Part shown: one piece after another, positions 5,846-43,505 of the stretch
Layout: each line of letters opens with the position of its first letter
Numbering within the stretch: position 1 is the stretch's first letter
Origin: a virus
Taxonomy: Duplodnaviria; Caudoviricetes
Direction: 5' to 3' (one strand)
DNA: 64,000 bases
Virus record (IMG/VR): IMGVR_UViG_2930337131_000001
Location: 64,054 to 128,053 of that record
Notes under the pieces: generated by a model
Databases searched by the model: none
What the model was told of the DNA's origin: nothing
What the model saw: only the letters and a program-made list of their open reading frames with translations
Translations under genes and position numbers: made by a program

Positions 5846-5875
5846 GCGACACAAGCCGCTCCGCTCGCTCATCCT
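5846..5875 (+). promoter_or_regulatory. Late-promoter motif (leaderless)
   Basis: GCGACA-N18-CATCCT, 7 nt before GTG 5883. Confidence 0.65.
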
Positions 5876-5882
5876 CCGCCCC

Positions 5883-6521
5883 GTGACCAGATACGGATTC
5901 GCCATCAAGGCTCTCCCCAAGGGCGCCAAGCCTTTCGGGCAGGAAGACGACGAGAACGAGGAGACCCCGGGGCTCGAGACATCCAGCCCCGGCGCCTCCG
6001 ACAGCGACACCTCCCTGGACCCTGCGGACGAGCTGCCCGAGGATCCGACAGCGGCCCCGGCCGCACCCGCCGAGGACCCCACCGCACCCCCGGAGGACCC
6101 TTCAGCCTCCCCGGCCGGGGACGCTCCACCGGAGGGAGACGGCACCGGCCAGGAGCCGGCGGACGCCCCGCCGCAGCCCGAAGACGACTCCCGCCCCTGG
6201 GCCGGAGACGAGTACAACGAGGGCGACGAGACCGACCCCAACGGCCCCCAGTCGTGGTCTGCGTTCACCGGCAGCAACGGGGAACAGGCTTGGCTCGACA
6301 AAGCCCAGGACGGCACACTGACCGGATGGGTGCGGGACTCCAGCGGCCAGGTGTGGCGCTACACCGACCCCGACGCGTGGGCGCTCGACGTCGACGGCGC
6401 CCAGATGACGCAGACGCACCACAACGGCGAGGACAACGCCCAGGCGGCCGGGGACGGCACGCAGGGCGGACAGGCCCCGGACGACCGGGGCAAGCAAGAC
6501 CTGATGTTCGCGGGCCAGTGA
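5883..6521 (+). CDS. Acidic Pro-rich hypothetical head-region protein
   Basis: In-frame GTG start within ORF 5796-6521; low-complexity N-half and Trp-rich C-domain. Confidence 0.7.
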   Translation: MTRYGFAIKALPKGAKPFGQEDDENEETPGLETSSPGASDSDTSLDPADELPEDPTAAPAAPAEDPTAPPEDPSASPAGDAPPEGDGTGQEPADAPPQPEDDSRPWAGDEYNEGDETDPNGPQSWSAFTGSNGEQAWLDKAQDGTLTGWVRDSSGQVWRYTDPDAWALDVDGAQMTQTHHNGEDNAQAAGDGTQGGQAPDDRGKQDLMFAGQ

Positions 6522-6533
6522 GGAGAGTCGAGA

Positions 6534-6749
6534 GTGCAGCTCAACCGGCAGGCGTTCCAGGACCTGCTCAACGAGGGCAAGGCCGCGTACGCGGCGGGAG
6601 ACCCCTCCGACTCGTGCCCGTACAACATGTACGGCGCCGACGTGGAGGAGCGGTTCGGATACCGCTACTGGACCCGCGGTTGGGTCATGGCCCGGTCTGA
6701 GGCCGAGGCCCAGGCCGCCCAGCCTGTAGGAGCCAGCGCAGGACAGTAA
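6534..6749 (+). CDS. Rmf/CrpP-fold small protein
   Basis: EGKAAYAAG...CPY...YWTRGW matches the ribosome-modulation-factor-like G..A...G..CPY...W..GW pattern; GAGGAG RBS. Confidence 0.65.
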   Translation: MQLNRQAFQDLLNEGKAAYAAGDPSDSCPYNMYGADVEERFGYRYWTRGWVMARSEAEAQAAQPVGASAGQ

Positions 6750-6769
6750 GGCACTCCACTCGGCACGGT
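6740..6769 (+). promoter_or_regulatory. Late-promoter motif
   Basis: AGGACA-N18-CACGGT upstream of the protease gene. Confidence 0.5.
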
Positions 6770-6808
6770 GCCCGGCGGCCCACTGTCCACCGCCGGAGGT
6801 TCCCCGCC

Positions 6809-9010
6809 GTGCCGAGCGCTGCTCCACCCACCAGATCCACCCGTCCCAGCACCACCCAGCGAGGCACCAGCCGGGCAATCTACGCCGTGACGGGCGTGGT
6901 CGACGAGGTCGAGGACCTCATCCTGCCTGGTGCTTTCACCCGCACCCTGGCTTCACGGCCCGTCAAGTCCGTGTGGCATCACGGGTGGAAGGACCCTGTC
7001 GGCGTCGTCCTCGAGTGCGAGGAGTGGATGCCCGGGGACGTCCGATTCAAGAGCATCCCCGACTGGCCGCCCGAGGCCGGCGCGCTCGTCGCCACCGTGC
7101 TCTACAACCTGCGCACACAGCAGGGCCGCGACGCCTACGAGCAGGTCAAACAGTGGCATGAGCACAAGCAGGCCGCGTTCTCCATCGGCTTCCGCGTCCC
7201 CGAGTGGGGCGCCACCATGCGCAACAAGACCCGCATCATTCACGACATGGACCTGTTCGAGGTCTCGCCCGTGCTGCACGGAGCGCACCCGATGACCCGC
7301 AGCCTCGAGGTGAAGTCCGCCGCCGGCAGCGGGCACGACGGGCTCGAGTACAAGTCCACGCCCGGCACCGCGGAGATCGACGTCGTCGCCCCGAAGGACG
7401 ACACCGCCATCAAGGTCGCCGGCCTGGTCGTCAAGGCCGCCGACACCGGCCGCGTCCTGATGATCCAGCGCGCGCTCGACGACGAGGACCCGGCCGCGGG
7501 TACGTGGGAGTTCCCCGGCGGGCATGGAGAGGACGACGAGGACCCGCTGCAGACCGCGATCCGCGAGTGGGGTGAGGAGACCGGCTCGACGCTCCCCGGC
7601 ACCGCCAGCGTCGTCGGATCCTGGACGGCCCCGAACGGCATCTACCGGCTCTACGTGGCCGTGGTCCCGACCGAGGCGTCCGTGCCGATCAACACTCCGC
7701 ACGACGAACGCCGGATCGCCAACCCGGACGACCCGGACGGCGACGCAACCGAGGTCACCGCCTGGTGGCCGATCACGGCCCTACCCGACATGCCGCTCCT
7801 GCGGCAGGAGTGCCGCGAAACCCCGTGGGACCTCCTGGCCGGCGCCGCCCTGCCGAAGCCCTCCGGGCCGAGCCTCGACCCCGTGAAGGTCGCGGCCGGG
7901 ACCGTCGCCGCCCAAGACTTCGCCGACGGCGTGCTGTCCCGCTACCGGGCCCTGGCCGCCGCCGAGAAGAAGTCCGCGCACGCCGCGGTGCAGGGCGCTC
8001 GTACGCGGCCGCACCTCGAGCACAAGTCCGCCCGGGTCATCGTCTCCGAGGCCAAGGCCGCCGGCGGCGCGGACCAGAACCGCGGGGACGCCGAGCAGTT
8101 GCGGCACTGGTACGTCCGCGGTGAGGGCGCAGCTCAAATCGGCTGGGGCACTCCCGGCGACTTCGACCGCTGCGTGTCCATCGCCGGACGCCACATGAGC
8201 CCGGAGAACGCCAAGGGTTACTGCAATCTCCGCCACAAGGACGCCCTGGGCATCTACCCCGCCACCCACGCGGCCGAGAGCAAGAGCGCTCGCCGCGCGG
8301 TCCTCGAAGCCAAAGCACTCAGCGCCAGCACTGGAGACCCCATGGACCCGATCCAGCCCCTGCCCCAGTCGTTCGAGCAGATTCGCGACCGCCTCGGCCA
8401 GGCCGTCCGCGTGCTGCTCGCTCCCGATGACGACACCTGGGCGTGCATCCACGGCACCTACCCGGACCACGTCATCGCCTCGGTGCACTCCGGCGAAGAG
8501 GGAGAGGAGCACTACCTGGTGCCGTACACCCTCGACGGCGACGACGTGACCCTGGGCACGCCGAAGCCGGTCACGCTGGCCACCGTCGTCGTCTCCGACG
8601 AGGACGACGACGAGCCGCGCGAGGCCGACGAGGACGAGGAGGCCGAAGCCCGCGTCGTCCAGCCCACGGTCGACGCACTCAGCGACGCGACCGCGCGGAT
8701 CAGCACCACCACCGCGGGCCCGAAGCAGCTCCAGGGAGTCCGAGACAAGGTCCGCGACCTGATCGCCGCCCTGTCGGCGAAGGGACTCGACGTCGCCGAC
8801 GCACAGCCCGCGCGCCGGATGGGGCTGGACCTGTGGGAGGAGGACGACGAAGAGACGCCCGACGACACCGGGGACGGCGAGCCCGAGGGCGACCCCGCGG
8901 GCGACGACCCGGACGGCGACCAGGACGACCCGACCCTCAAGTCGGACGACGACACCGTCCGCCTGGACCCCGAAGAAGTGAAGGCCGCACTCGCCGCACT
9001 GCGGAGCTGA
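6809..9010 (+). CDS. HK97-type prohead protease fused to a Nudix hydrolase and two further domains
   Basis: Protease motifs VWHH...PVG, FSIGF and LFEVSPV. Nudix box GGHGEDDEDPLQTAIREWGEETG. GGAGG RBS; immediately upstream of the major capsid gene. Confidence 0.85.
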   Translation: MPSAAPPTRSTRPSTTQRGTSRAIYAVTGVVDEVEDLILPGAFTRTLASRPVKSVWHHGWKDPVGVVLECEEWMPGDVRFKSIPDWPPEAGALVATVLYNLRTQQGRDAYEQVKQWHEHKQAAFSIGFRVPEWGATMRNKTRIIHDMDLFEVSPVLHGAHPMTRSLEVKSAAGSGHDGLEYKSTPGTAEIDVVAPKDDTAIKVAGLVVKAADTGRVLMIQRALDDEDPAAGTWEFPGGHGEDDEDPLQTAIREWGEETGSTLPGTASVVGSWTAPNGIYRLYVAVVPTEASVPINTPHDERRIANPDDPDGDATEVTAWWPITALPDMPLLRQECRETPWDLLAGAALPKPSGPSLDPVKVAAGTVAAQDFADGVLSRYRALAAAEKKSAHAAVQGARTRPHLEHKSARVIVSEAKAAGGADQNRGDAEQLRHWYVRGEGAAQIGWGTPGDFDRCVSIAGRHMSPENAKGYCNLRHKDALGIYPATHAAESKSARRAVLEAKALSASTGDPMDPIQPLPQSFEQIRDRLGQAVRVLLAPDDDTWACIHGTYPDHVIASVHSGEEGEEHYLVPYTLDGDDVTLGTPKPVTLATVVVSDEDDDEPREADEDEEAEARVVQPTVDALSDATARISTTTAGPKQLQGVRDKVRDLIAALSAKGLDVADAQPARRMGLDLWEEDDEETPDDTGDGEPEGDPAGDDPDGDQDDPTLKSDDDTVRLDPEEVKAALAALRS

Positions 9011-9120
9011 GTTGCACCCCCGCGACCACTCCACCCCGCCGGCCCCGCTCTACCGCAGTTAACAAAACCGCAGGTCAAACCCCATGCGCTGCCCGCTCTT
9101 GACGTCTCGAGCGGGCAGCG

Positions 9121-9148
9121 CGCGACGTTAACCCCCCTCTCCCACTTT
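9121..9148 (+). promoter_or_regulatory. Late-promoter motif upstream of the capsid gene (variant spacing)
   Basis: CGCGACGTTAACC is identical to the copies at 17381 and 43475; CACTTT lies at a 15-nt spacing. Confidence 0.55.
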
Positions 9149-9235
9149 CATCCCGCCTCGCGTTGAGGCGTCCCGGTGCTGGCCGGGCGAACGGCGCACG
9201 TCAACCGCCACCCCAGCATCAGGGAGAGCCCCGCA

Positions 9236-10528
9236 ATGCCCACCAGCCGTATCCAGGAGCTGCAGAAGGCGCTCGAGCTCAAGAGCAACGAGGCCGAGCG
9301 CATCAGCCAGAGTTTCAAGGTCGAGGACGGCGGTCAGTTCGTCGTCTCCAGCGAGCAGGCGAAGGCCTTCAAGAAGGTCTCCGGCGAGGCGCAGGAGATC
9401 AAGGCGCTCATCGACGCCGAGCAGGGCCTGACCGAGATCAAGCAGTACCTCGACGCCCCGGACGCCCCGCCGGCCGCGGCCGCGCACTACGCCCAGCGTC
9501 ACATGGGCGTCGAGGAGAAGTCCCTCGGCGACCTGTTCGTCGAGTCCAGCTCCTTCCAGCGCGCCACGCAGGCCGAGTTCCGTGACAAGCCGTACATCCG
9601 CGCCGACATCGAGGGAAAGAGCATCTTCTCCCTGTCGGCCGGCACCGTGACCCACCAGGTCCTCGGCTCCGCGCAGAACCTCGGCATCGCCGAGCGCCCG
9701 TTCCGCAAGTTCCACATCCGCGACCTCTTCCCGAAGTCGACGACCAAGAACCCGGTCCTGTACGGCGCACGTGAGACCGGCTGGACCAACTCCGCCCGCC
9801 AGGTCAAGGAGCGGTACGCCGCGGACGGCGTCTCGCCGGCCACCGGGGCGGACACCGACACCTGGGGTCGGGCCCCGCGGTCCAAGCTGACCCTGACGCC
9901 GGTGATGTACCCGGTCGCAGAGGTCGCCCACCTCCTGGACGCGCACAAGAACATCCTGTCCGACGAGCCACGCCTGAAGACCTTCATCAACACGCGCATG
10001 GTCGAGGGCGTCAAGTACGCGGAGGACTGGGACCTCCTGCACTCCGTCGGCGACGGCCAGTCCCTCACCGGCATCTACAACACCCCCGGCGTCCAGCAGT
10101 ACACGGGCCTCGCGGCCGACCAGTACTCCGTCCAGATCCGCCGCGCCATCACCAAGGCGCTGCTGGCCGAGTACGACCCGACCGGCATCGTCCTGTCGCC
10201 CACGATGTGGGAGCACGTCGAGGTCGAGGAGGACAAGAACGGCGCCTTCCGCGTCGCCATCGCCGTCGCCATCGGCGCCGAAAAGAAGGTCTGGAGGCTG
10301 AACGTCGTCGAGACGACCGCGATGGCCGACACCGACTTCCTGATCGGCGCCTTCGGCCTCGGCGCGCAGCTCCACGACCGCGAGAACGTCTCCGTGACCG
10401 TCTCCTCGGAGAACGCGGACAACTACGAGAAGGGCCTCATCACCTTCCGTGCCGACGAGCGCCTGGCGCTCGAGGTCCCCCGGCCGGAGAGCTTCGTCAT
10501 CGGCACCTGGACCCAGCCGACCGGCTGA
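9236..10528 (+). CDS. Major capsid protein (HK97 fold)
   Basis: N-terminal coiled delta domain; LLHSVGDGQSLTGI; C-terminal NYEKGLITFRADERLALEVPRPESFV; GGGAGAG RBS. Confidence 0.9.
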   Translation: MPTSRIQELQKALELKSNEAERISQSFKVEDGGQFVVSSEQAKAFKKVSGEAQEIKALIDAEQGLTEIKQYLDAPDAPPAAAAHYAQRHMGVEEKSLGDLFVESSSFQRATQAEFRDKPYIRADIEGKSIFSLSAGTVTHQVLGSAQNLGIAERPFRKFHIRDLFPKSTTKNPVLYGARETGWTNSARQVKERYAADGVSPATGADTDTWGRAPRSKLTLTPVMYPVAEVAHLLDAHKNILSDEPRLKTFINTRMVEGVKYAEDWDLLHSVGDGQSLTGIYNTPGVQQYTGLAADQYSVQIRRAITKALLAEYDPTGIVLSPTMWEHVEVEEDKNGAFRVAIAVAIGAEKKVWRLNVVETTAMADTDFLIGAFGLGAQLHDRENVSVTVSSENADNYEKGLITFRADERLALEVPRPESFVIGTWTQPTG

Positions 10529-10541
10529 TCCACGCCGCAGT

Positions 10542-10575
10542 GAGGGGGTGCACCCGGGCACGGGTGCGCCCCCTC
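10542..10575 (+). terminator. Stem-loop after the capsid gene
   Basis: GAGGGGGTGCACCCG-ggca-CGGGTGCGCCCCCTC. Confidence 0.6.
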
Positions 10576-10608
10576 CCCCGTACCACCACACGACGACGGA
10601 GGACCCTG

Positions 10609-12127: not shown

Positions 12128-12157
12128 AAGACGTAAAGGAGACCGGAAGTTCACCGT
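12128..12157 (+). promoter_or_regulatory. Late-promoter motif (leaderless)
   Basis: AAGACG-N18-CACCGT, 6 nt before ATG 12164. Confidence 0.55.
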
Positions 12158-12916: not shown

Positions 12917-12944
12917 CAAGATCGTTCTTGCCCAATTGGGCAAG
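12917..12944 (+). repeat. parS-like 28-bp element, copy 2
   Basis: CAAGATCGTT-CTTGCCCAATTGGGCAAG. Confidence 0.75.
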
Positions 12945-12962: not shown

Positions 12963-12992
12963 GCGACCGTAACCGTCCGGGTGGGGCACGGT
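12963..12992 (+). promoter_or_regulatory. Late-promoter motif
   Basis: GCGACC-N18-CACGGT. Confidence 0.6.
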
Positions 12993-13577: not shown

Positions 13578-13607
13578 GCGACACAAGCCGTACCCGACGT
13601 GCAGGGT
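13578..13607 (+). promoter_or_regulatory. Late-promoter motif
   Basis: GCGACA-N18-CAGGGT. Confidence 0.6.
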
Positions 13608-16643: not shown

Positions 16644-16672
16644 GCGACACAAGCCGGCCGGGCGCCCACAGT
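16644..16672 (+). promoter_or_regulatory. Late-promoter motif (leaderless)
   Basis: GCGACA-N17-CACAGT, 7 nt before ATG 16680. Confidence 0.65.
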
Positions 16673-17380: not shown

Positions 17381-17411
17381 CGCGACGTTAACCACTCCCG
17401 CTCTCCAAGGT
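17381..17411 (+). promoter_or_regulatory. Late-promoter motif
   Basis: CGCGACGTTAACC; GCGACG-N18-CAAGGT. Confidence 0.65.
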
Positions 17412-17450
17412 GTCCGCGCCCTGACACCGGACACCTTGGAGAGCCCCGTC

Positions 17451-18060: not shown

Positions 18061-18090
18061 GCGACACAAGCCCCACCGGCTTGGCACTGT
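18061..18090 (+). promoter_or_regulatory. Late-promoter motif
   Basis: GCGACA-N18-CACTGT. Confidence 0.6.
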
Positions 18091-24021: not shown

Positions 24022-24051
24022 GCGACGTTAGCCCCCGCGGCCGCCCACTCT
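24022..24051 (+). promoter_or_regulatory. Late-promoter motif
   Basis: GCGACG-N18-CACTCT. Confidence 0.6.
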
Positions 24052-26262: not shown

Positions 26263-26292
26263 GCGACACTAACCCGCTCTCCCCTCCACTCT
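26263..26292 (+). promoter_or_regulatory. Late-promoter motif
   Basis: GCGACA-N18-CACTCT. Confidence 0.6.
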
Positions 26293-31866: not shown

Positions 31867-32247
31867 GTGCCCACACTGCCACTGCCGCTTAGCGCCCTCT
31901 GCGGTCTCGCCGATGAGCCGACGTTACTGCCGCGGGTCCGCCTGGCCATTGCGATGATCGCGCAGGAGGTCTTTGCCGAGCCTCCCGAAACTCCCGGCTA
32001 CCCACTGCGCTGGAACCTGGCCAAGACCGTGTTGAGCCCTACAGCGGCACAGACGATGCAGATGATGGTCGGCATCGTCGCCTCGCCCCCCATGGTCGCC
32101 GCGGCGGCCGCCACCGGTGCGACGGGCGCGTCAGCCATGGCCGCCGCGATCACGGACGACCAGATCCTCGGAGCGATCCGCCTTGGCTGGAACGCAGTCG
32201 CCGGCGTCAGCCCGACGGCAGCGGAGCCGATGGTGGTTGAGACGTAA
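31867..32247 (+). CDS. Hypothetical protein (possible tail-fibre-associated); contains a TTA codon
   Basis: GAGGAGG RBS; TTA at 31924. Confidence 0.65.
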   Translation: MPTLPLPLSALCGLADEPTLLPRVRLAIAMIAQEVFAEPPETPGYPLRWNLAKTVLSPTAAQTMQMMVGIVASPPMVAAAAATGATGASAMAAAITDDQILGAIRLGWNAVAGVSPTAAEPMVVET

Positions 32248-32268
32248 GCGGTCGCAGTGGTGCAGGGT
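32239..32268 (+). promoter_or_regulatory. Late-promoter motif
   Basis: GAGACG-N18-CAGGGT. Confidence 0.5.
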
Positions 32269-32349: not shown

Positions 32350-32757
32350 ATGGAGTGGCTCACCTCTCTGGCGCCTGTCCTCGCCCCCCTGTCCGGCATG
32401 GTTGGCGTGCTGGGCGGGGCCTGGATGGTGTACCGGCAGACGAAACACAAGACCGACACCGACGCCCGCACCGCGGAAGCCAACACCGCAGTCACCGCTG
32501 TGACGACCGTGACAGAGGGCTTCACCAAGCTGCTGGAGCAGCAGCGCGAGACCAACGCGAAGACCCTCGAGCGGCTCACCACCGTGGAGGCCCGCGTGGA
32601 GCGCCTCGAGGAGGAACAACGGCAGTGGCGGAGGTGGAAGGCCGCCGCGGTGGAGTACATCCACCAGCTCCGCGCGCTGGTCGGCCGGCTCCGTGAGAGT
32701 CCCGCCCCGGCCCCGCCGCGGGAGCTCGCCGAGGACCTGGGCGACAACGCGACGTAA
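32350..32757 (+). CDS. Single-TM coiled-coil lysis-cassette membrane protein
   Basis: GAGGAGG RBS; N-terminal TM segment followed by a coiled coil. Confidence 0.65.
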   Translation: MEWLTSLAPVLAPLSGMVGVLGGAWMVYRQTKHKTDTDARTAEANTAVTAVTTVTEGFTKLLEQQRETNAKTLERLTTVEARVERLEEEQRQWRRWKAAAVEYIHQLRALVGRLRESPAPAPPRELAEDLGDNAT

Positions 32758-32778
32758 GCCGTCGGCCGCGCGCACAGT
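32749..32778 (+). promoter_or_regulatory. Late-promoter motif
   Basis: GCGACG-N18-CACAGT. Confidence 0.6.
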
Positions 32779-34301: not shown

Positions 34302-35074
34302 GGCGCGCTCCTGGCCGACCGCTCCACCTTCAAGGGCGCGCCCGATGGCGCGCCCTTCTCCATGTCCGGGCGCGCCTGGGCACCGCGCCGCGCGCGCGGA
34401 CTCGGCGCGGTCCTCGGCGCGCGGCCGGCCGGTGGGCGCGCCGCGCGCCACCTATCGCGCGGATGGGCGCGCGCGCTCGAGCGGTCAGGGGCGCGGTAGT
34501 CCTGCGCGCCGTTCCGGAGCCCGCGCGGGGCTCCCCCCGGGGCCGCGCTCGAGGGCGCGCCACGGCCAGGCGCGGGGCGCGCCCTCGAGAAAGGGCAGGT
34601 CAGATGGCGCGCGCCCTGGCGCGCTTGCTGTGGCGCGCGTGCGCGCGGTGGCCATGGCGCGGGCGCGCGGCGCGGTCGGATCGGGCGCGCGCGCGATCGT
34701 CAGGAGGGCGCGCGGCGCGGCGCGGGTATGGCGCGCGCTCACTGGATCGGCGCGCTTGGGCGCGCGCCCGGCGGCGCGCCTGGGTCCGCGCGCGCGGCGC
34801 GGTACGGGATGGCGCGCGCTCCCTCTGGGCGCGCCTGGGCGCGCGCGGATCGGCGCGCTTGGGGAGCGGCGCGGGCGCGCCTGGCAGGCGCGCCCAGGGG
34901 AAGGCGCGCAGTGCCTGGGCGCGCGCTTGGGGGAGGGACGGCGCGGCGCGCGGGCGCGCCTCGAGGTGATGTGACGTGACGAGAGAAGGGGGAGCGGCGC
35001 GCGCCGTGGAAGCGCGCCCGAGGGGGCCGGGCGCGCGTCACGTCACGTCACGTCACTGTCCGGCGGGCGCGCCC
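34273..35074. repeat. Non-coding GCGCGC-dense array
   Basis: About 40 GCGCGC-containing blocks by hand count in ~800 bp between convergent genes, with GTGAC/GTCAC pentamer repeats at the right end. Confidence 0.8.
34332..34357. terminator. Perfect 11-bp stem-loop
   Basis: AAGGGCGCGCC-cgat-GGCGCGCCCTT. Confidence 0.55.
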
Positions 35075-36768
35075 TCGAAGTACGGCGCGAACCGCCTGGC
35101 GAGCTTCGGGTCGACCGGCGGGGCCTTCCGGTAGTACTCGGCGAGCTCCGTCTCTCCAGCCGCCTCGAGGTACTCGACGAGTCCCGGGCGGTGGCCGAGG
35201 ACGTAGTTCCGCAGCTCGGGCAGCTCCGGGTCGCCGGTCTCGGAGATCGGCCCCAGGTGCTCACCCTTAGTCATCATCAGGAGTCGGGCCTGAACCTCGG
35301 CCTCCTCGTACAGGGCCTTGAATGCGAGCTCCTCGCCCCTGTTCCTCCGGGAGGCCGGACGCGCGGCGGCGGGGGGCGGGACGTCCTGGGGCTCCTCGGC
35401 CTGGCTGGTCTCCTCCGGGTTCTCGTCGATCGGGGGCTCCTCGTGCTCCGGGTCCGGCGGCGGGGGCGCGGAGTCGTACTCGGCCGGCGGCTCCGGCTCC
35501 TCGTGGGCCTGGTGCTCGCGGGCCTGCTCCGGCCGCTGGTCCTGCGGGGCCGGGGCGGTGCTCGGTGCCTGCTGGGGCGGCTGGGTTCCCTGCCCGGCGG
35601 CGGCCGCCTCCGCCTTCTTCTTGGCCTGCTCCCTGACTGCGGTCAGGGCGCGGGTGATCAGGGCGTCGGCGTTCATCTCCCCCCACAGCTTCGTGCGGGT
35701 GGGAATCCGCTCGAGGGTCCGCTTGCCCCACGTCTCGCGGATGTCGACCAGGCGCGCCTCCGGATCGGTCGGGTCGTTGAGCGCCTGGTGCACGAGACTG
35801 ACGGCCCCCTGGCCGGTGAGCTCGGATGACTGGGGCGCATGCTGCTGGGGCTGGGCTCCCTGCTGGGGCGGGCGCTGCTGAGACTGGTTCGGCCCCTGCT
35901 GCCGCTGGTTCTGCTGCTGCGGCGGCCGCTCCCCCTGCTCGTCCAGGTACGCGTCCGGCCGGGTCTCGGTGACCTGGCGGGTGGCGGCGGCCTCGTGGAA
36001 ACCCATGCGGCGGAGCAGGCTGTCGATGCTGAAGTCCCGGTACCGCTCCGTCTCGCCGGGCTTCATCTCCCAGTGCAGCGTGCGGACCCCCGTCAGGTAG
36101 GCGTCGCCCAGGCCGTGCAGTTCCACGATGGCGTCGACGGCGGCCGGAAGGTTCTTCTCGGCCTTGATCTTTCGGGTGGTGTTCCGGGTGGGCTTGTCGT
36201 TCTCGAACGCGGTCACGATCTCCTGGCGGGCGATCATCACCACGGGGCCGGAGTGCCGGCGGAGCAGCCACAGGAACTCGCCCCACCGGTCCTTCGCCCG
36301 GTTCCACAGGTCGGCGTCGATGACGACCGGGTCGTCCAGCGAGGGCCCGCGGCGCTTGTTCTCCTGCGCCTTCCGCACGGCGCGGCGGCGCGCGTACAGG
36401 GCCTGCTCGTCGCCGAGCATCTCCCACAGGTTCGAGCCGTTGTCGACGACGATCATGTTGGGCTTACCGTCGACACGGGGCTGCGCGACGATCCAGCGGA
36501 CGGCGTCGAGGATGTCCTGATAGGTGCCGTCGTGCTCGACGATCTCGTACCGGGCCCCGGGGATCTTGCCGTAGTAGTCCGCGGTGCCCTCGGACCCACC
36601 GATCTCGAGCCAGTACGTCATGCCGATGAGGTCGGAGCGCGAGCCGACAGCGGCCTCGTAGCTCTTGCCGCACTTCTCGGGCCCGCACAGCAGGATGAAC
36701 GGCGGGTTGGGGAGGCAAGTCGGCTTCCGGGACGTACGGGCGCGCTGCGGCGCGGTGATACCAGGCAT
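35053..36768 (-). CDS. Sak4/AAA_24-like ATPase (recombination/annealing) with long Gln/Pro-rich extension
   Basis: Walker A GPEKCGKS, Walker B MIVVDN and VVMIAR; GAGG RBS. Confidence 0.7.
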   Translation of the reverse strand: MPGITAPQRARTSRKPTCLPNPPFILLCGPEKCGKSYEAAVGSRSDLIGMTYWLEIGGSEGTADYYGKIPGARYEIVEHDGTYQDILDAVRWIVAQPRVDGKPNMIVVDNGSNLWEMLGDEQALYARRRAVRKAQENKRRGPSLDDPVVIDADLWNRAKDRWGEFLWLLRRHSGPVVMIARQEIVTAFENDKPTRNTTRKIKAEKNLPAAVDAIVELHGLGDAYLTGVRTLHWEMKPGETERYRDFSIDSLLRRMGFHEAAATRQVTETRPDAYLDEQGERPPQQQNQRQQGPNQSQQRPPQQGAQPQQHAPQSSELTGQGAVSLVHQALNDPTDPEARLVDIRETWGKRTLERIPTRTKLWGEMNADALITRALTAVREQAKKKAEAAAAGQGTQPPQQAPSTAPAPQDQRPEQAREHQAHEEPEPPAEYDSAPPPPDPEHEEPPIDENPEETSQAEEPQDVPPPAAARPASRRNRGEELAFKALYEEAEVQARLLMMTKGEHLGPISETGDPELPELRNYVLGHRPGLVEYLEAAGETELAEYYRKAPPVDPKLARRFAPYFEGAPAGQ

Positions 36769-36885
36769 CGGTGTTCCTCGCTTCGTGGTCTCCCCGGGTG
36801 CTCTCCCGCGGAGGATGCAACGGCGAAGGGGTTAACCTCTCGCCGTTGTCCCTGGCTTACTATTCTACCCGCTTGGTGGGGTAGA

Positions 36886-38771: not shown

Positions 38772-39611
38772 TCACCAGTCGAGGGGCTCCGCCGGCTTCC
38801 GCCGGTCGGGGCCGACGATCCGAGCGACGTGCGCGGAGGACTCGAGCCGGGACAGCAGCCGCTCCCCCAGGATGTCGACCACGCCCAGGCCCGGACTGTC
38901 GGGCGTCCGGCGGCTGCGCAGGTTCGTGGTGTACGCCGTGGGCCGCCCGGCCGAGATGCGGGCGTCGATCAGGTCGATGGTCTCCCGCCGTGCGAACTCC
39001 GTGGCGGTCATGTCCATCTCTCCGCACAGTTCGTCGAGGATCAGCAGCTCGCACGTTACGAACTTCTTGCGGACCTCCCACGCCTTCAAGTTGTGCGGGG
39101 CCGAGTCCGGGCGTCGCCACGTCAGGTACGTCGCGTGCTTGATCATCAGGGTGTCCACGCCCGCGATGACGGCCTCGTTGCCCAGGGCGAACGCCGCGGC
39201 GGTCTTCCCGCTGCCGATGTTCCCCGGGATGATCATGTTCAGGGTCTCCGGGCGGGAGCCGGACCGCTTCGCCTCCACCAGGGAGTGAAGCCAGTTCTGC
39301 AGGGTCTGCGGCTTCTGGTTCTTGTCCAGCTTGAGGGGGCCGGTGGTGAACCGGAAGCCGAGGTACTCCTGGTGGGCCGCGTCCTCGACGCTCCGCTCCC
39401 ATGCGAGTCGTCGCGCGTGAGCCTTCGGCACGGCCGTGTCCTCCCAGAGCTCTATCTCTGATCTGTCGGTGCGGCGGTCGGGGACGCCGAGCTGGGACAT
39501 GTCGGCGCCACCGCGGCGCAGGATCGCGAACATGTGGTCGGTCACGGCGCCTGCCAGGTTCAGGCCGCGCTCGGGGCCCGGGGTCACCGGGGCATCCACC
39601 GTGAGGGACAT
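38772..39611 (-). CDS. DnaC/IstB-like ATPase (helicase loader)
   Basis: GNIGSGKT, LLILDELCGE, AYTTN and GERLLSRL motifs. Confidence 0.8.
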   Translation of the reverse strand: MSLTVDAPVTPGPERGLNLAGAVTDHMFAILRRGGADMSQLGVPDRRTDRSEIELWEDTAVPKAHARRLAWERSVEDAAHQEYLGFRFTTGPLKLDKNQKPQTLQNWLHSLVEAKRSGSRPETLNMIIPGNIGSGKTAAAFALGNEAVIAGVDTLMIKHATYLTWRRPDSAPHNLKAWEVRKKFVTCELLILDELCGEMDMTATEFARRETIDLIDARISAGRPTAYTTNLRSRRTPDSPGLGVVDILGERLLSRLESSAHVARIVGPDRRKPAEPLDW

Positions 39612-39616
39612 CGAGA

Positions 39617-40612
39617 TCACACTCCCTGCGTGCGGTTGACCACGCCGAACGTGGCGTCGTCGGAGTCGTCGTGTTCGGGGGCTTCGGGGGTGCCGGGTGG
39701 GGTCTCGCCCTGCTTGCCCCAGGTCGCCGAGTCGCTGTACGGAACGGCGCCGTTGGAGCGGGTCGGGGTGATGTGGTTGGTGACGACGCCCAGGGCGTCC
39801 TGCCACTGCTGCGCGCTGGGCAGGTGCTTACGCGCGCGGCGGAGGGCGTCCGCGCACTGGCGCTGCGTGTAGCCCGCTTCCAGGGCCTTCTTCACCATGC
39901 CGCGCATAGCGATGTAGCCGTTGGTCTTGCCGACGTACTTGCCCAGGTGCTTCTCAGCGTCCGCCCACCACCACGTGGCGACCTTCTCGGCCGCTTCGTC
40001 GATGGCCTTCTTCTCCGCGGCCTTCTTGTCCGCCGCGGCCTGCTTCTCCGCGTCGTCGGCGGCCTTCTGCTCCGGGGTCCGGCGGGTGCGCCGCTTGGGG
40101 GCGGCCGGCGGCTCCTCGGCGGCCGCGGGCTCCTCCTCCGGGGCAGGGGGCTCCTCGTCGCGGGGGTCGGGCTCGAACCCGTCGCTGCCCAGGGTGCCGT
40201 CCGGGTACTCGACGAGGAACGTGCCGTCCTCCTGCTCGATGACGGGGACGGCCGGGTCCTTCTGCGAGCTGAAGATGGCGTGGTCGGCGGCCCACTGGGG
40301 AACGGGGTACTCGGCGACTGACGTGCCCATCACGACCTTGCCGGTGCGCAGACGGCGGCGCTCGAGGCGGTAATACCCCTTCGCGGCGAGCTCGCGCAGC
40401 GCGGTACGGACGGCCTCGCGGCCCTCCCGACCCTCGCCCTTGGAGAGCTGGTCGGAGCGGACCTGCCACCCCTCCTTCTGGTCCAACAGGTAGGTGAGCA
40501 GGCCGAGGGCGCGGAAGCTGATGCTCGTGTCCCGGGCGGTCGTTGACTCGACTCGCACGTGGTAGACGCGCCGGGCGACCCGCACCCCTGTGGGATCGGA
40601 CAGGCGGCTCAT
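39617..40612 (-). CDS. Phage replication initiator (N-terminal wHTH)
   Basis: ISFRALGLLTYLL...GREAVRTALRELAAKGY; upstream of the loader gene. Confidence 0.75.
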   Translation of the reverse strand: MSRLSDPTGVRVARRVYHVRVESTTARDTSISFRALGLLTYLLDQKEGWQVRSDQLSKGEGREGREAVRTALRELAAKGYYRLERRRLRTGKVVMGTSVAEYPVPQWAADHAIFSSQKDPAVPVIEQEDGTFLVEYPDGTLGSDGFEPDPRDEEPPAPEEEPAAAEEPPAAPKRRTRRTPEQKAADDAEKQAAADKKAAEKKAIDEAAEKVATWWWADAEKHLGKYVGKTNGYIAMRGMVKKALEAGYTQRQCADALRRARKHLPSAQQWQDALGVVTNHITPTRSNGAVPYSDSATWGKQGETPPGTPEAPEHDDSDDATFGVVNRTQGV

Positions 40613-40887
40613 GCGGATGCCTCGCTGGGGGTGTCGTTGGTCAGGCGGAAGTCGGTGCGCTTGGAGCGGCGGCCGGACTCGTTGCTCAGGTAGCGGTACC
40701 GGCGCTCGGCCATGCCCGCGTTGCGCAACTCGGTGACGGCGCTGCGGACCTGGTGGGAGTTCAGGCCCAGGCCGGTGTAGATGGACGCGAGGTCGACCCA
40801 CTCGCCGTCGGGGTGGAGGGCGAGCTGGAAGAGAACACGGTGCGCGCGGTCGGACAGGCGCCGGGGGCGGGTCTGCGTGGTGGTCAT
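40609..40887 (-). CDS. Small winged-HTH protein
   Basis: LSDRAHRVLFQL...LGLNSHQVRSAVTELRNAGMAER. Confidence 0.65.
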   Translation of the reverse strand: MTTTQTRPRRLSDRAHRVLFQLALHPDGEWVDLASIYTGLGLNSHQVRSAVTELRNAGMAERRYRYLSNESGRRSKRTDFRLTNDTPSEASA

Positions 40888-40946
40888 GGTGCTGGTCCCT
40901 GGGAAGAGGGGCCCGGCCGCGAGGGGCCGGACCCGGGCGGCTGTCG

Positions 40947-41552
40947 TCACTCGTCGCGCGCGCCGGGCTGCGCCTTGGGCAGCAGCTCCGGCGTCTCCCG
41001 CAGTTCGTCGTCGAGGTCACCGCGCCGGTAGGCGGCCAGCAGAGCGGCCTTGCCTATCGGCTGCTTCTTGAAGGTCTTCCAGGTCCAGGTGACGGTGCCG
41101 GTGGGCTTCCCGCCCGGCACGAACTTGAGACCGGGGATGAGCTCACCGGACCGCGAGTCGAAGATGGCGCCCGTCTCTGGGTCGCGCTGGGCGTGCCGGA
41201 GAACGGCCGTCTCGAACGACTTCTTCCGGACGATGACGACGTCGTACTCGCCCTTCTCCTCCGCGTACTCGTCGAACGCGGCTTCGTCGGCGATCTCGAA
41301 CCGGTCGCGGGTCTTGTTGACCTTGTAGTGACCGACCTCTTCGCCGCCGACGGTGATGGTGAGGTCCGACTGCTTACGCTCGAGGAACGCCTGGACGAGG
41401 GGGTCCTTCGGGGCGTTCACCTTCGGGGTGATTATCGCCGCCTGGTGTTCCGTCATGGCGCGGGCGATTGCCCCGACGAGCCCGAGAGTATGCAGGTCAG
41501 GCCCGGAGTCCGACTCATCGGCCGGGACGGCGTCGGCAACGTCGTGCGACAT
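40947..41552 (-). CDS. Hypothetical phage protein
   Basis: GAGAGG RBS; DPETGAIF...GELIPGL motif common in phage DNA-metabolism proteins. Confidence 0.7.
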   Translation of the reverse strand: MSHDVADAVPADESDSGPDLHTLGLVGAIARAMTEHQAAIITPKVNAPKDPLVQAFLERKQSDLTITVGGEEVGHYKVNKTRDRFEIADEAAFDEYAEEKGEYDVVIVRKKSFETAVLRHAQRDPETGAIFDSRSGELIPGLKFVPGGKPTGTVTWTWKTFKKQPIGKAALLAAYRRGDLDDELRETPELLPKAQPGARDE

Positions 41553-41735
41553 CTCGGTGTTCCTCTCTTTCCCCGGACGCCTGGCCCAGGGTTCTGGTCC
41601 TCCCGGGCTGGTGTTCGGGGCGCGTCACCTTGGGGTACGTCGCCGGCCGATTTTTGTTACACCTAGGCCCAGGTAGCTGGGTTGCTCTCCCAACTGAGCC
41701 GAATAGTACACCCAGGGCAACGCGATGTGGAGCGC

Positions 41736-41764
41736 GCGACACAAGCGCCTCGTCCGTCTACCTT
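41736..41764 (+). promoter_or_regulatory. Late-promoter motif
   Basis: GCGACA-N17-TACCTT (CGCGACACAAGC). Confidence 0.55.
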
Positions 41765-41982
41765 CCTCGCGGCTCTGCAGCATCCGGCGACGTCACCGGG
41801 AGCAGCAGGGCCCCGGCTCCGCCCCATCCGGAACGAGGGCGGAACCGGCCCGGCGGCAGGTGAGGGTCGGCCATGACGGCATCGTCCCGCTTGCGAGGCG
41901 GGGCGCCGCGGTAGGAGTCCGCGGGCTCGCAGCCCTCACCCGCTGCCGGACACCGACCGCATGGGAGAGGAACGCACCAGCC

Positions 41983-42615
41983 GTGACCGAGACGATCGCC
42001 GCGCCGCGCTACATCGCGTACGTGCCGCTCACCGACCTGTCCCCCGCGCCCCGAAACCCGAAGCGGCACGAGCTCGAGCTGATCATCGCGTCGATCGACA
42101 TGCACGGCCTGGTCGAGATACCCGTCGTCGACGAGCGGACCCAGCAGACCCTCCACGGCCACGGCCGGCGCGAGTCCCTGCTGGAGATGCAGAACCGCGG
42201 GATGCGCGTCCCGAGCGGTGTCGTCGTCGACGAAGACGGGGGCTGGCTGGTCCCTATCCTGCGCGGCTGGCACTCGAGGAACGACGCCGAGGCGGAGGCC
42301 TTGGCCATCAAGCTCAACCGGCTGCCCGGCGAGGGCGGATGGGACCCCCGCGAGCTCGCCGAGATCCTCGAGGACCTGGCGACGAACGAGGTGGAGCTGT
42401 TCGACTCCCTGGCCATTCCCCACGACGAGATCGACAAGATGCTCGGCCAGGTCGACCCGGAGACGTTGCCCGGCGGCGGCCGCGAGGACGAGACGCCCCT
42501 GCTCCACCTGCCCGACGACGGAGAGCGCGGCGACGGACTCAGCCCCGACGACGAGGGCCGCGCACCGCACACGACGTGCCCGGCCTGCGGGCACCTGTTC
42601 ACCTCCAGCCGCTGA
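41983..42615 (+). CDS. ParB/Srx N-terminal-domain protein with C-terminal Zn ribbon
   Basis: LSPAPRNPKRH...SIDMHG...PVVD...HGHGR; CPACGH. Confidence 0.75.
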   Translation: MTETIAAPRYIAYVPLTDLSPAPRNPKRHELELIIASIDMHGLVEIPVVDERTQQTLHGHGRRESLLEMQNRGMRVPSGVVVDEDGGWLVPILRGWHSRNDAEAEALAIKLNRLPGEGGWDPRELAEILEDLATNEVELFDSLAIPHDEIDKMLGQVDPETLPGGGREDETPLLHLPDDGERGDGLSPDDEGRAPHTTCPACGHLFTSSR

Positions 42616-42635
42616 CCGCCTCCCGAGGAACGCCC

Positions 42636-43280
42636 ATGTCCACCCGACGCAAGGCACGCCGGCCCGAGGGCCGCAGCGGTCGCCCACGCCTGCTCTCCGA
42701 AGAGGTCGAGTCCCGTCTCGTCGCGGCCTCCCGCACGGGCGTAGCCGTCGAGCTGGCTGCCGAGATGGCCGGCATCTCTCGCTCCACGTTCCTGGCGTGG
42801 ATGGCCCGCGGCCGCGCCGAGGTCGACGCCCGTGAGGAAGGCAAGAAGCCCGACCCGGCCGAGGAGGAGTACGCGGCCCTGTTCGAGAAGGTCCGCACCG
42901 CCCGTGCCACCGCGGGCGCGCGCGCCATGATGAACATTCGCAGGATCGCGGACGGCGGCATCGTCACCAAGATCACCACCCGCAAGTTCCGCGACTCTGT
43001 CACCGGCGAGATCGTCGAGGAGACCGTCGAGGACCGCACGCCCCCGGACTGGCGCGCTGACGCCTGGTACCTCGAGCGGCAACACCGCGACGCCTACGGC
43101 AAGGACGCGACGCTCGCCCTCGAAATCACCGGCCTCGGTGACGTCCCGGCCGGCGCGGACGACGGGGCCGTCGACCTGGCCGCGCTCGCCGAACGCCTGG
43201 ACCGCAGCCTGTTCTCGGTCGAGTACCCGCCGGAGCTCGAGGACGGCAGCGTCGTTGACGCCGAGGTGGTCGACGAGTGA
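42636..43280 (+). CDS. Terminase small subunit-like HTH protein
   Basis: GRPRLL...AAEMAGISRSTFLAW...DWRADAWYLER. Confidence 0.6.
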   Translation: MSTRRKARRPEGRSGRPRLLSEEVESRLVAASRTGVAVELAAEMAGISRSTFLAWMARGRAEVDAREEGKKPDPAEEEYAALFEKVRTARATAGARAMMNIRRIADGGIVTKITTRKFRDSVTGEIVEETVEDRTPPDWRADAWYLERQHRDAYGKDATLALEITGLGDVPAGADDGAVDLAALAERLDRSLFSVEYPPELEDGSVVDAEVVDE

Positions 43281-43459
43281 CCCGGCAACCGCCCGCGCCT
43301 GCCCCGCTCTGCGGCGCCCGCACCGTCTTCTGGCCCGACGACGAGGCGTGCGACGCAGAGTGCTCCTGGCCGCCCGAGCACGGCGGGAGCAGGCACTTTG
43401 ACGAGAGCCTCGGCGAGTGGGACGAGTCCGAACTGCCCACCGTGCTGCGCGACGAGTAG
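43277..43459 (+). CDS. Small Cys/His protein
   Basis: GTGA overlap with the previous gene; C...C...H....H pattern. Confidence 0.5.
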   Translation: MTRQPPAPAPLCGARTVFWPDDEACDAECSWPPEHGGSRHFDESLGEWDESELPTVLRDE

Positions 43460-43474
43460 GGCCGCAAGCCAGCA

Positions 43475-43505
43475 CGCGACGTTAACCACGCACGCCCTGC
43501 ACGGT
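43475..43505 (+). promoter_or_regulatory. Late-promoter motif
   Basis: CGCGACGTTAACC; GCGACG-N18-CACGGT. Confidence 0.65.

Follow-up and report, generated by a model that had tools for sequence, protein, structure and literature searches.

It is textbook biology that a phage can carry a promoter consensus of its own. The late promoters of T4 (gp55/gp33) and the middle and late promoters of SPO1 (gp28, gp33-34) are scattered by the dozen among the morphogenesis genes and are read by phage sigma-like factors; the T4 late promoters consist of a -10 element alone, TATAAATA, and require the sliding clamp. In Streptomyces the primary sigma factor HrdB reads promoters of the form TTGACN-16-18-TAGAPuT, in which the -35 element is typically not more conserved than the -10 element. 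Another kind of dispersed site is the stoperator of the cluster A mycobacteriophages (the L5 gp71 sites), an asymmetric sequence of about 13 bp with two dozen intergenic copies in one orientation, found within both early and late operons and with no fixed -10 partner.

For phiEco32, gp36 is described as a phage sigma factor that has the middle and late genes transcribed from a phage-specific consensus, the early genes relying on the host sigma (PMC12276001). For ECF sigma factors, PMC6101532 reports that their sigma-4 domains bind -35 elements more tightly and more specifically than those of primary sigmas, and that they flip a single base where primary-type -10 recognition exposes two. The ECF frame given in PMC7776599 is a spacer of 16-18 bp, with the start 10-11 nt from the flipped base.

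The stretch that we analysed (the window, 64,000 nt) is half of the 128,053-bp genome IMGVR_UViG_2930337131_000001. This genome is akin to Streptomyces phage Gilgamesh and to Streptomyces plasmids of 125-132 kb, and the element that bears the motif described below is a Gilgamesh-like Streptomyces phage-plasmid. Its carriage as a plasmid is evident in many strains, and Gilgamesh is the sole named phage of the family. The genome encodes many HTH proteins as well as DpdA-type DNA-modification genes.

Architecture and distribution of the motif

The motif is about 30 bases long and has two parts, GCGAC-RYWARSC and CAnnnT, separated by a variable stretch of 12 nt. It is present at all 15 coordinates given in the initial annotation, at 9122 in the variant form reported there, with a perfect upstream box and TTTCAT replacing CAnnnT (Table 1). 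Counting from the G of GCGAC as idx 0, the first base of CAnnnT is idx 24 in 12 sites and idx 23 in two (16644 and 41736), which leaves 18 or 17 nt between GCGACR and CAnnnT in 14 of the 15 window sites. The spacing is rigid, with one value in 13 of the 15 and two sites 1 nt shorter. The upstream box has no symmetry, it overlaps the -35 position and it holds more information than the -10 block; GAC at idx 2-4 is invariant, and three sites (6740, 12128 and 32239) have a weaker form of the box. The most conserved -10 bases are C24, A25 and T29, and S-T-S occurs at idx 28-30, the base after the T (idx 30) being solely C or G. Conservation extends past the two blocks to idx 7-11, W-A at idx 7-8 included. 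The two conserved blocks have no mutual complementarity.

Table 1. Motif copies and sigma-region genes in window coordinates; the PWM was built from the 15 listed + strand sites, which makes its scores circular for them
Feature	Position	Strand	Score (bits)	Gene context or support
Motif copy	5846..5875	+	25.2	Leaderless GTG 5883, 212-aa ORF, homologue of Gilgamesh gp50
Motif copy, weak upstream box AGGAC	6740..6769	+	22.2	SD + GTG 6809, 733-aa prohead protease/NUDIX protein
Variant copy	9122..9151	+	upstream box 22.2, downstream 0.0	SD + GTG 9176, major capsid protein
Motif copy, weak upstream box AAGAC	12128..12157	+	25.5	Leaderless ATG 12164, 247-aa GP88-family protein
Motif copy	12963..12992	+	26.9	SD + ATG 13032, IPT/TIG-domain protein
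Motif copy	13578..13607	+	33.5	SD + ATG 13648, unit extending to head-to-tail adaptor
Motif copy, 17-nt spacer	16644..16672	+	31.9	Leaderless ATG 16680, 90-aa ORF then tail terminator
Motif copy	17382..17411	+	31.8	SD + ATG 17451, major tail protein
Motif copy	18061..18090	+	32.5	SD + ATG 18143, tail assembly chaperone then tape measure protein
Motif copy	24022..24051	+	29.4	SD + ATG 24082, minor tail proteins
Motif copy	26263..26292	+	34.6	SD + GTG 26344, 1,837-aa tail fibre protein
Motif copy, weak upstream box GAGAC	32239..32268	+	26.0	Holin-like membrane protein, start 32332 or 32350
Motif copy	32749..32778	+	33.9	Overlaps final 9 nt of gene before; SD + ATG 32815, small ORF
Motif copy, 17-nt spacer, -10 block TACCTT	41736..41764	+	30.0	Long leader to ParB-like gene (41983), TerS (42765)
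Top-scoring motif copy	43476..43505	+	37.7	SD + GTG 43541, endolysin then SSB
Weaker copy, GAGAGGTTAACC...CATCCT	36812..36841	-	20.9	Precedes 571-aa AAA-ATPase-like gene 35053-36768 (-)
Weak candidate copy	58639..58668	-	18.2	Precedes 229-aa ORF 57895-58584 (-)
ECF-type sigma factor gene, candidate motif reader	47177..47881	-		Pfam r2 + r4; TIGR02937 7.6e-29
Conserved 130-aa ORF	46804..47196	-		Overlaps sigma gene end; 87 homologues, mostly on 124-132 kb contigs; no Pfam family

These counts are far from what shuffled sequence gives. The upstream 12-mer GCGACRYWARSS occurs 18 times on the + strand of the 128-kb genome and 0 times on the - strand, compared with 1.37 +/- 1.15 (maximum 5) in 200 dinucleotide shuffles, and CAnnnT stands at offset 23/24 in 14 of the 18 upstream-box matches against a background of 1.66% (about 1.7%; binomial 3e-22). 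Within the window, GCGACRYWARCC with at most one mismatch has 14 matches compared with 5.60 +/- 2.47 in 100 shuffles, 0 of which reach 14, and its 10 exact matches are on the + strand every time. A looser pattern, GACNNWA-N14-15-CANNNT, gives 20 matches on the + strand and three on the - strand genome-wide (shuffles 2.85 +/- 1.70, maximum 8). All but one of these 23 are intergenic or no more than 34 nt from a called gene end, in an orientation that agrees with the next gene; the one within coding sequence is at window position 5388, inside the giant ORF.

The full set is larger than the roughly 15 copies first estimated. There are 22 copies on the + strand of the whole genome, which bears out the suggested layout of many promoters, and at least seven of them lie outside the window (genome positions 18515, 18950, 20709, 21878, 25554, 53991 and 57545), including sites 5' of TerL, the portal operon and the giant ORF. 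The statement that all copies are on the + strand is right for the 15 sites listed and wrong overall, given the weaker - strand copies at 36841 and 58668. The former is kept in four relatives with its core positions at 100%; for the latter the orthologous segment in relatives was not recovered. Two - strand genes possibly belong to the regulon. By gene content the motif-associated genes have virion, packaging and lysis functions, and the label of a morphogenesis and lysis regulon is too narrow: the motif also precedes TerL, the HNH gene region, the portal operon, the 3,992-aa ORF and the ParB-TerS unit, and likewise the endolysin-SSB unit. It is missing from the non-structural gene blocks, where other motifs are found; one of these, an "early box", has seven copies in the 128-kb genome and 0 in Gilgamesh.

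Alignments with five relatives, made without the PWM, gave a two-block footprint: identity is 0.94 over ten core positions, 0.54 in the spacer and 0.69-0.74 in the flanks, and the core is above the spacer in 13 of 13 sites. Gilgamesh and seven plasmids carry the motif at orthologous places, and the upstream box is identical across them. Even the less regular sites are kept, with the core positions of 6740 100% conserved in four relatives and the variant form of 9122 retained in five.

Promoter reading and proposed mechanism

The gene downstream starts either at idx 36-37, with no leader, or at idx 54-93 with a Shine-Dalgarno sequence, the one exception being a 247-nt leader. An ATG or GTG of a long ORF lies 6-7 nt past CAnnnT (idx 36/37) at seven of the 22 + strand sites (p = 4e-5); the three such cases reported earlier in the window, at 5846, 12128 and 16644, are confirmed. 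The seven ORFs span 90-3,992 aa, and TerL and the giant ORF are among them. Starts annotated for orthologues by PGAP and SEA-PHAGES fall at idx 35-38: at idx 35-37 for the 5846 site (PGAP, four plasmids), at idx 36-37 for 12128 (Gilgamesh, L009 and L010) and at idx 36-37 for 16644 (Gilgamesh, L008, L010 and L011). The tail fibre orthologue behind the 26263 site is leaderless in Gilgamesh, L009 and L011. Judged by this spacing, TerL and Gilgamesh gp45, gp48 and gp50 are probably leaderless, and the motif would correct several start codons, including those of these four genes. The leaderless geometry puts the -10 T at -7/-8 and the A at -11/-12.

Two blocks at 16-19 bp spacing, a co-oriented gene downstream, and conserved blocks with a free spacer were all seen. 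In silico, this supports the view that the motif is built and placed like a sigma-70-family promoter, and the altered -35/-10 layout proposed at the outset agrees with the blocks conserved in five relatives. We consider it very probable that the copies are promoters of a phage-specific class. That they are instead some other RNA or DNA signal (terminator, processing, packaging, partition or DNA-modification target) strikes us as highly improbable. Some copies do lie in or abut strong hairpins (genome 25554; window 9122, 12963, 13578, 16644 and 18061), and DpdA-type genes could supply a modification system, but hairpins are not general, random windows have the same mean folding energy as the sites, the conserved blocks cannot pair, and the window has 0 Rfam matches. 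Strict orientation, start codons fixed at 6-7 nt and Shine-Dalgarno starts 54-93 nt away would also be unexpected for such a signal.

If the copies are promoters, GCGAC(R) would be the -35 element and CAnnnT, 17-18 nt further, the -10 element, with transcription starting 6-8 nt past the T of CAnnnT. About a third of the units would then yield leaderless mRNAs and the others would have leaders of 17-57 nt bearing a Shine-Dalgarno sequence, and with 22-26 promoters the genes for packaging, head, tail and lysis would be expressed as many short units. Both elements deviate from what the host primary sigma prefers, with GC in place of TT in the -35 and C in place of T at -12, so that the promoters would be silent without a phage factor. 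The capsid promoter at 9122, which has no CAnnnT, is unexplained by this model.

Silence could in principle be imposed in another way, by a repressor that acts on the asymmetric 12-bp box, stoperator-like, and holds weak host-type promoters off in the plasmid-prophage state with no phage positive factor involved. The box resembles a stoperator in its 12-13 bp, its asymmetry, its intergenic siting and its two dozen copies in one orientation, and carriage of the element as a plasmid, evident in many strains, requires that its virion genes be silent. We nevertheless regard this as improbable. A -10 partner at a fixed distance in 14 of 18 boxes, together with start codons at the predicted +1, implies that the box is part of a promoter and not a roadblock within an operon. 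The box is absent from the non-structural blocks. Immunity-specific operators also usually differ among relatives, and the box is the same in Gilgamesh and seven plasmids, unlike the early box.

The candidate reader

The ECF sigma gene noted at 47177-47881 in the initial annotation is confirmed (TIGR02937, regions 2 and 4). It has regions 2 and 4 only, its best solved relative is BldN (6dxo), and comparison with its homologues points to the GTG at 47863 as the probable true start. The gene was found in eight of eight motif-carrying relatives, and many of its 55 homologues are on contigs of 121-132 kb. Every member examined has both sigma and motif, a series without a presence/absence contrast, and the region-4.2 helix (V/I)RTLQHR is nearly invariant in members only 36% identical overall. 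The overlapping 130-aa ORF is a possible partner of the sigma. Homologues of the pair are found on dozens of 121-132 kb Streptomyces contigs.

The most likely reader of the motif, as far as sequence comparison can indicate, is this sigma, which would direct host core RNA polymerase to the motif promoters and would itself be made from a different promoter class. The motif distances are compatible with the ECF frame. The presence of the gene in all eight relatives, its near-invariant region-4.2 helix, the asymmetric, information-rich and rigidly spaced upstream box and the phiEco32 precedent also count in favour of the sigma. Several features speak against it: CAnnnT has an invariant A and, four bases on, an invariant T, the hallmark of primary-type -10 elements; GAC stands in the -35 block where AAC is usual for ECF promoters; and S-T-S at idx 28-30, to be compared with the (C)GT(C)-type -10 core of ECF promoters, has only C or G at idx 30. 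Reading A-R-C at idx 8-10 as the AAC core was rejected, as it would be too near the start site judged from the leaderless starts. Most ECF sigmas are autoregulated, and the sigma gene lacks an upstream motif copy, with no PWM match above 12 bits on the - strand at 47882-48113 and none in the upstream alignment. A Micromonospora plasmid with a sigma 34% identical has 0 motif copies in 40.5 kb. The sigma reading also gives no contact for W-A at idx 7-8.

The main rival is that HrdB reads the sites and that the ECF sigma serves another gene class; a phage activator or sigma-appropriating factor, bound to the 12-bp box (-36 to -25), would then compensate for the weak -35 and for C at -12. GCGACA-N18-CAnnnT retains the key bases of TTGACA-N17/18-TAnnnT (G, A and C; A-11 and T-7), the leaderless starts place T at -7/-8 and A at -11/-12, and W-A at idx 7-8 sits at the position of the T4 MotA box. 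Even in family members with a sigma no more than 36% identical the motif stays the same, a constancy that the invariant host HrdB would explain. There are many HTH proteins that could act as activators, and two exposed -10 bases are typical of primary sigmas (PMC6101532). We still think this alternative unlikely. A dimeric activator usually binds a repeat or dyad, and the asymmetric box contains neither; no single activator candidate emerged, and conservation is higher in the -35 block than in the -10. The sigma, which all members retain, presumably serves a large gene class, and no other two-block repeat resembling an ECF promoter was found.

The geometry itself fits both the primary-sigma and the ECF reading. 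Taken whole, we lean slightly towards a phage-specific promoter class that is read with the element's own ECF-type sigma and that splits the packaging, head, tail and lysis genes. More tentatively, and with greater doubt than hope, we suggest that a family of Streptomyces phage-plasmids, widespread and 125-132 kb in size, may express all its virion, packaging and lysis genes from about 25 units, short and often leaderless, through a phage-borne ECF sigma with primary-like promoter geometry (GAC at -35; A and T four apart at -10) and a specificity outside the AAC/CGT rule, the sigma and the overlapping 130-aa ORF forming a plasmid/lytic switch.

Significance and comparison with known systems

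The motif would set the unit boundaries and provide a first regulatory map for this phage-plasmid family, and it singles out a sigma-promoter pair that can be tested as the switch by which a plasmid-prophage governs its virion production. Should the ECF sigma prove to be the reader, the two could offer a compact orthogonal expression system for Streptomyces, and an example of ECF specificity off the AAC/CGT rule.

Compared with the stoperators, the motif is alike in asymmetry, copy number, intergenic siting and single orientation relative to transcription, and unlike in having CAnnnT at a fixed offset in 14 of 18 boxes. It shares with HrdB promoters the geometry, the G, A and C of the -35 and the A and T of the -10, but nearly every copy reads GC where the -35 has TT and C where -12 has T, and the positions at idx 7-11 are additional. 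Judged against the general ECF pattern, there is likeness to ECF group 4 in the BldN-nearest sigma of regions 2 and 4, the information-rich -35, the rigid spacing and the distances, which fall in the ECF frame of PMC7776599. Set beside ECF promoters such as that of sigma-E (GGAAC-N16-17-GTC), the motif differs in GAC for AAC, in a -10 with A and T four apart like that of primary-sigma promoters, and in the lack of a copy 5' of the sigma.

The likeness to phiEco32 is that a phage sigma takes the host core RNA polymerase to many scattered promoters of the same consensus (PMC12276001), a role for which the sigma here is a candidate; the phiEco32 consensus is AATGTA centred at -11.5 and requires the co-factor gp79, whereas the motif has its strongest block, GCGAC-RYWARSC, at -35 and CAnnnT as the -10. 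The setting differs too, with a GC-rich actinomycete host, a phage-plasmid element and no gp79-like factor known. With T4 and SPO1 the element would share dispersed short phage-specific promoters in place of one late operon, and it differs from T4 in that its motif is two-block with a rigid spacer of 17-18 nt.

Form and enrichment of the motif

The initial annotation had listed 15 copies of a candidate late-promoter motif between window positions 5846 and 43476, and we found the motif at all 15 of them. It consists of an upstream box (GCGAC-RYWARSC, index 0-11, counted from the first G as 0), a variable stretch and CAnnnT, which begins at index 24 in 12 of the listed sites and at index 23 in two; site 9122 has TTTCAT in its place. 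The most informative columns are G2, A3, C4, W7, A8, C24, A25, T29 and C31.

The two blocks can be counted without a position weight matrix (PWM). With at most one mismatch, GCGACRYWARCC had 14 matches in the window, against 5.60 +/- 2.47 in shuffles, and its 10 exact matches there are all on the + strand. Genome-wide, GCGACRYWARSS occurs 18 times on + and never on - (1.37 +/- 1.15 in 200 shuffles), and the looser GACNNWA-N14-15-CANNNT 20 times on + and three times on - (expected 2.85 +/- 1.70). The upstream box and CAnnnT are tied to each other, since CAnnnT stands at offset 23/24 in 14 of 18 boxes where 1.66% would be expected (p = 3e-22); YAnnnT does so in 16 of the 18. A PWM built from the 15 listed sites scores them at 22.2-37.7 bits, values that are circular for these sites, and the highest score over ten shuffles was 20.0 bits. 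The next-best matches and the copies beyond the window are given in the table. That all copies lie on the + strand holds for the 15 listed sites and fails for weaker PWM matches, the two best of which are on -.

A scan with an E. coli-type promoter consensus, on DNA of 71% GC, recovered none of the motif sites and had a single match (TTGATC-16-TAGAAT, window 36889-36862, -). Terminator-like matches in the window showed no excess over shuffles, and at this GC content neither outcome is informative.

Placement, conservation and the promoter reading

Genes were called with a GC-frame script, whose starts tend to be over-extended. Of the 23 loose matches, 22 are intergenic or at most 34 nt from a called gene's end and the other lies 117 nt before the end of a giant ORF; every motif copy is oriented toward the next gene of its own strand. 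A start codon (ATG or GTG) stands at index 36-37 in seven of the 22 + strand sites (background 4.6%, p = 4e-5), opening ORFs of 90 to 3,992 aa. Three of the seven are in the window, where a start 6-7 nt past CAnnnT had been reported and is borne out. In the remaining sites a Shine-Dalgarno sequence precedes a start at index 54-93, with one exception among them, the 247-nt leader of the ParB-TerS unit. PGAP or SEA-PHAGES starts fall at index 35-38 of the local copy in orthologues of the three window sites and of the tail-fibre gene, as does the annotated start of the giant-ORF orthologue in one related plasmid locus.

In Gilgamesh, a related Streptomyces phage, the annotated starts of gp45, gp48 and gp50 lie inside or upstream of motif copies. 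Its TerL CDS is annotated from record base 1 (GTG), and the last 73 bases of the record hold a motif copy and an in-frame ATG, 12 codons upstream of this GTG across the ends (compare genome 25554-25593 here). Judged from these sequences, the called TerL start is probably too far downstream, base 1 being a matter of convention.

PWM copies occur at orthologous places in Gilgamesh, of which the whole genome was scanned, and in seven plasmids (CP108533, NZ_CP107934, CP109288, NZ_CP122459, NZ_CP107821, NZ_CP108441 and NZ_CP070374), of which 40-50 kb each were scanned. Because a PWM-based search is circular, we also projected 550-nt segments by blastn onto Gilgamesh and four plasmids and aligned them with MAFFT. 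This kept 13 of 17 sites (at least two orthologues) and left out 12963, 32239 and 43476 (one orthologue each) and 58668 (none). Over ten core positions, identity to the window averaged 0.94, against 0.54 over the spacer (index 11-23), the orthologous sites not being independent; the near flanks had 0.69 and 0.74, and coding flanks 0.72-0.74. Core identity exceeded spacer identity in all 13 sites. As read from the alignments, this pattern is the footprint left by a protein that binds two blocks and leaves the spacer free. An IMG/VR scan with one motif variant gave 69 loci, 36 of them with flanks homologous to this genome's own predicted promoters. We take these 36 as the same family and read the other loci, on AT-richer contigs, as chance.

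Because anatomy, orientation, start-codon distance and footprint all fit, we predict that the motif is very probably a sigma-70-family promoter. If +1 is set at the leaderless start codon, GAC comes to lie at about -34 to -32, A25 at -11/-12 and T29 at -7/-8, and the spacer measures 17-18. It is extremely unlikely that the motif is instead a terminator or processing signal, a partition or packaging site or a modification target: the two blocks are not complementary to each other, folding energies at the sites equal those of random windows, and Rfam at the gathering threshold gave no match in the window. Weak host-type promoters under repression at a stoperator-type site would share the asymmetry and orientation of the motif, but such a site would come without a fixed -10 partner and without start codons at +1, and we regard this explanation as improbable.

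When the surroundings of the sites were folded, strong hairpins adjoined some of them. As a general rule, however, "terminator-promoter modules" were rejected, the mean energies (up70 -28.5, span90 -36.3) being equal to those of random windows (-25.7, -35.2). In the capsid-gene copy only the A and T at index 28-29 of TTTCAT are kept in five relatives, and the leader of this gene has two hairpins, the first being GCCTC-gcgtt-GAGGC. At the major tail protein gene, the -10 region of the predicted promoter and the gene's Shine-Dalgarno sequence form a 17-bp stem; the two arms also match in two plasmids, and match less well in Gilgamesh. Since the leader folds at -34.9 kcal/mol in read-through RNA versus -2.6 in RNA from the predicted +1, the model suggests that the ribosome site would be free only in transcripts from the gene's own predicted promoter.

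The candidate reader

By its sequence the ECF-type gene in the window is clearly a group-4 sigma factor, with its start, going by homologues, probably at the GTG at 47863. Its Pfam domains are r2 and r4, and it matches TIGR02937 (7.6e-29); its best subfamilies, all sub-threshold, are SigX, BldN, SigK and ShbA, and its closest solved relative is S. venezuelae BldN (6dxo). The sigma is encoded by every one of the eight relatives in which the motif was looked for (79% to 36% identity), and its region-4.2 helix is nearly invariant even in the 36%-identical members. We counted 55 homologues with 54% identity or more, many on contigs of 121-132 kb.

We lean somewhat toward the phage's own sigma as the reader of the motif. 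The sigma's presence in all eight relatives, its 55 homologues and its near-invariant region-4.2 helix count for it, and so does the upstream box, which is asymmetric, overlaps the -35, holds most of the information and is rigidly spaced; PMC6101532 describes binding of the -35 by ECF sigma-4 as tighter and more specific than that by primary sigmas. With C4 set as -31, the motif distances match the ECF frame given in PMC7776599 (16-18 bp spacer, start 10-11 nt from the flipped base). Against the phage sigma, the motif has GAC where ECF promoters have AAC, and the A and T of its -10 are four bases apart. This is typical of primary sigmas, which according to PMC6101532 expose two bases, whereas ECF sigmas flip one. 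The main rival, which we consider rather unlikely, is the Streptomyces primary sigma HrdB acting with an activator or appropriator from the phage that would bind at -36 to -25; some other explanation is very unlikely.

A PWM scan and an upstream alignment found no motif copy upstream of the sigma gene, a further point against the phage sigma. That alignment, of the window, Gilgamesh and two plasmids, has no recognisable promoter class, and its conserved blocks are shared by the window and Gilgamesh only. The Micromonospora plasmid pVMKU has a 34% identical sigma and no motif match in 40.5 kb, which tells neither way, and the IMG/VR scan, with its one variant, found no independent lineage with the motif and no sigma, or the reverse. 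Compared by eye with the E. coli RpoE sequence, R177, T178 and D95 of the sigma presumably occupy the positions of RpoE R171, S172 and N84; they are invariant or nearly so across the sigma family. Todor et al. link these RpoE positions to -31, -34 and -12/-13. Beyond region 4 the sigma continues into a conserved C-terminal extension of about 40 aa, and a conserved 130-aa ORF (87 homologues, no known family) overlaps the end of its gene and may encode a regulator of the sigma.

Coordinates of the motif copies and other features
Feature	Position	Strand	Remark
Motif, start at index 36-37	window 5846, 12128, 16644	+	
Motif, start at index 36-37	genome 20709, 25554 (TerL), 53991, 57545 (giant ORF)	+	
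Next-best PWM match	window 36841	-	20.9 bits
Next-best PWM match	window 58668	-	18.2 bits
Next-best PWM match	window 19791	+	16.4 bits
PWM copies beyond window	genome 18515, 18950, 20709, 21878, 53991, 57545		27.9-36.1 bits
Weaker PWM copies beyond window	genome 25554, 12020, 3862 (-)		
Capsid-gene motif copy and leader	window 9122-9190		
Stem, major tail protein	window 17403-17441		17 bp
ECF-type sigma gene	window 47177-47881	-	
Sigma C-terminal extension	window 47177-47300		
130-aa ORF	window 46804-47196	-	
Giant ORF	window 3-5507, from genome 57582		3,992 aa; between portal operon and head protease
PemK/MazF-like toxin gene	window 50769-51313		small upstream ORF
DUF6545, PAP2-like, undecaprenyl-diphosphate synthase homologue	window 52707-55892		near toxin gene
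Leader hairpin, full	window 36805, 63406, 63868	-	
Leader hairpin, partial	window 33441 (+), 41689 (-), 48068 (+)		
TTGCCCAGGGTGTACTATTC box	window 41720 (-); genome 978 (-), 4374 (-), 8173, 10616, 15619, 23429		
TTGCCCAATTGGGCAA palindrome	window 5796-5811, 12928-12943, 55905-55920; genome 57495		
Contig-end repeat	genome 1-100, 127960-128053		

The element, its other repeats and known systems

The window (70.7% G+C) is the second half (64054-128053) of one 128,053-bp contig, whose ends share a sequence, probably because a circular or permuted molecule was assembled with an overlap. Pfam and PHROGs identified head genes (prohead protease-NUDIX fusion, major capsid protein), tail genes (tail tube, tape measure, minor tail and fibre proteins), lysis genes (holin-like protein, endolysin) and, besides the ECF-type sigma, a ParB-like protein, TerS, SSB, a DnaC-like loader and ParA. 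The first half holds TerL, a portal-MuF fusion, DpdA-type DNA-modification genes, a tyrosine recombinase, an FtsK-like protein and the start of the giant ORF, which extends into the window. Gilgamesh (129,136 bp) matches about half of a queried 21-kb structural region at 81% identity; Streptomyces plasmids about 125-132 kb long match this region too, at 70-80%. Because of these matches and the gene content of both halves, the element is, on sequence grounds, a temperate phage of the phage-plasmid kind. The toxin gene and the block near it are cargo genes in the plasmid-maintenance region. The giant ORF has no Pfam match, and PGAP labels its relatives, whose CDSs span 13-19 kb, as UvrD or DEAD/DEAH helicase-domain proteins; we take its place among head genes to be reminiscent of packaged anti-restriction proteins such as P1 DarB.

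A second repeated element, a hairpin whose loop (AGAGCA) is constant and whose stem, about 5-8 bp long, varies, lies in 5' leaders and is followed by (A)GACCACGAA, the Shine-Dalgarno sequence GAGGA and ATG. Its arms stay complementary across copies, of which there are 13 in the genome (ten in the first half) and 11 in Gilgamesh, before non-structural genes on both strands. It has no Rfam match, and we take it to be reminiscent of the start-associated sequences of cluster K mycobacteriophages. The 20-bp box TTGCCCAGGGTGTACTATTC closely precedes several of these hairpins. It has seven copies in this genome and none in Gilgamesh (at most three mismatches) and might serve as an early promoter or operator particular to the immunity of this phage; in the window, its copy adjoins the late motif at 41736, in a divergent region. 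The palindrome TTGCCCAATTGGGCAA, with GAACGATCTTGG flanking on one side, has four loci here and four in Gilgamesh. Three of the four here lie 35-50 nt upstream of late-motif copies (genome 57545, window 5846 and 12963), and the palindrome could be an operator or a bidirectional terminator.

Our literature searches, which covered Gilgamesh transcription, Streptomyces phage-plasmid sigma regulons, actinobacteriophage late promoters and phage-encoded ECF sigmas, found no description of the motif, nor of the first two subjects. T4 and SPO1 are older examples of phage sigma systems. The closest mechanism is that of phiEco32, in which, according to PMC12276001, the phage's own sigma gp36 transcribes middle and late genes with a phage-specific consensus.
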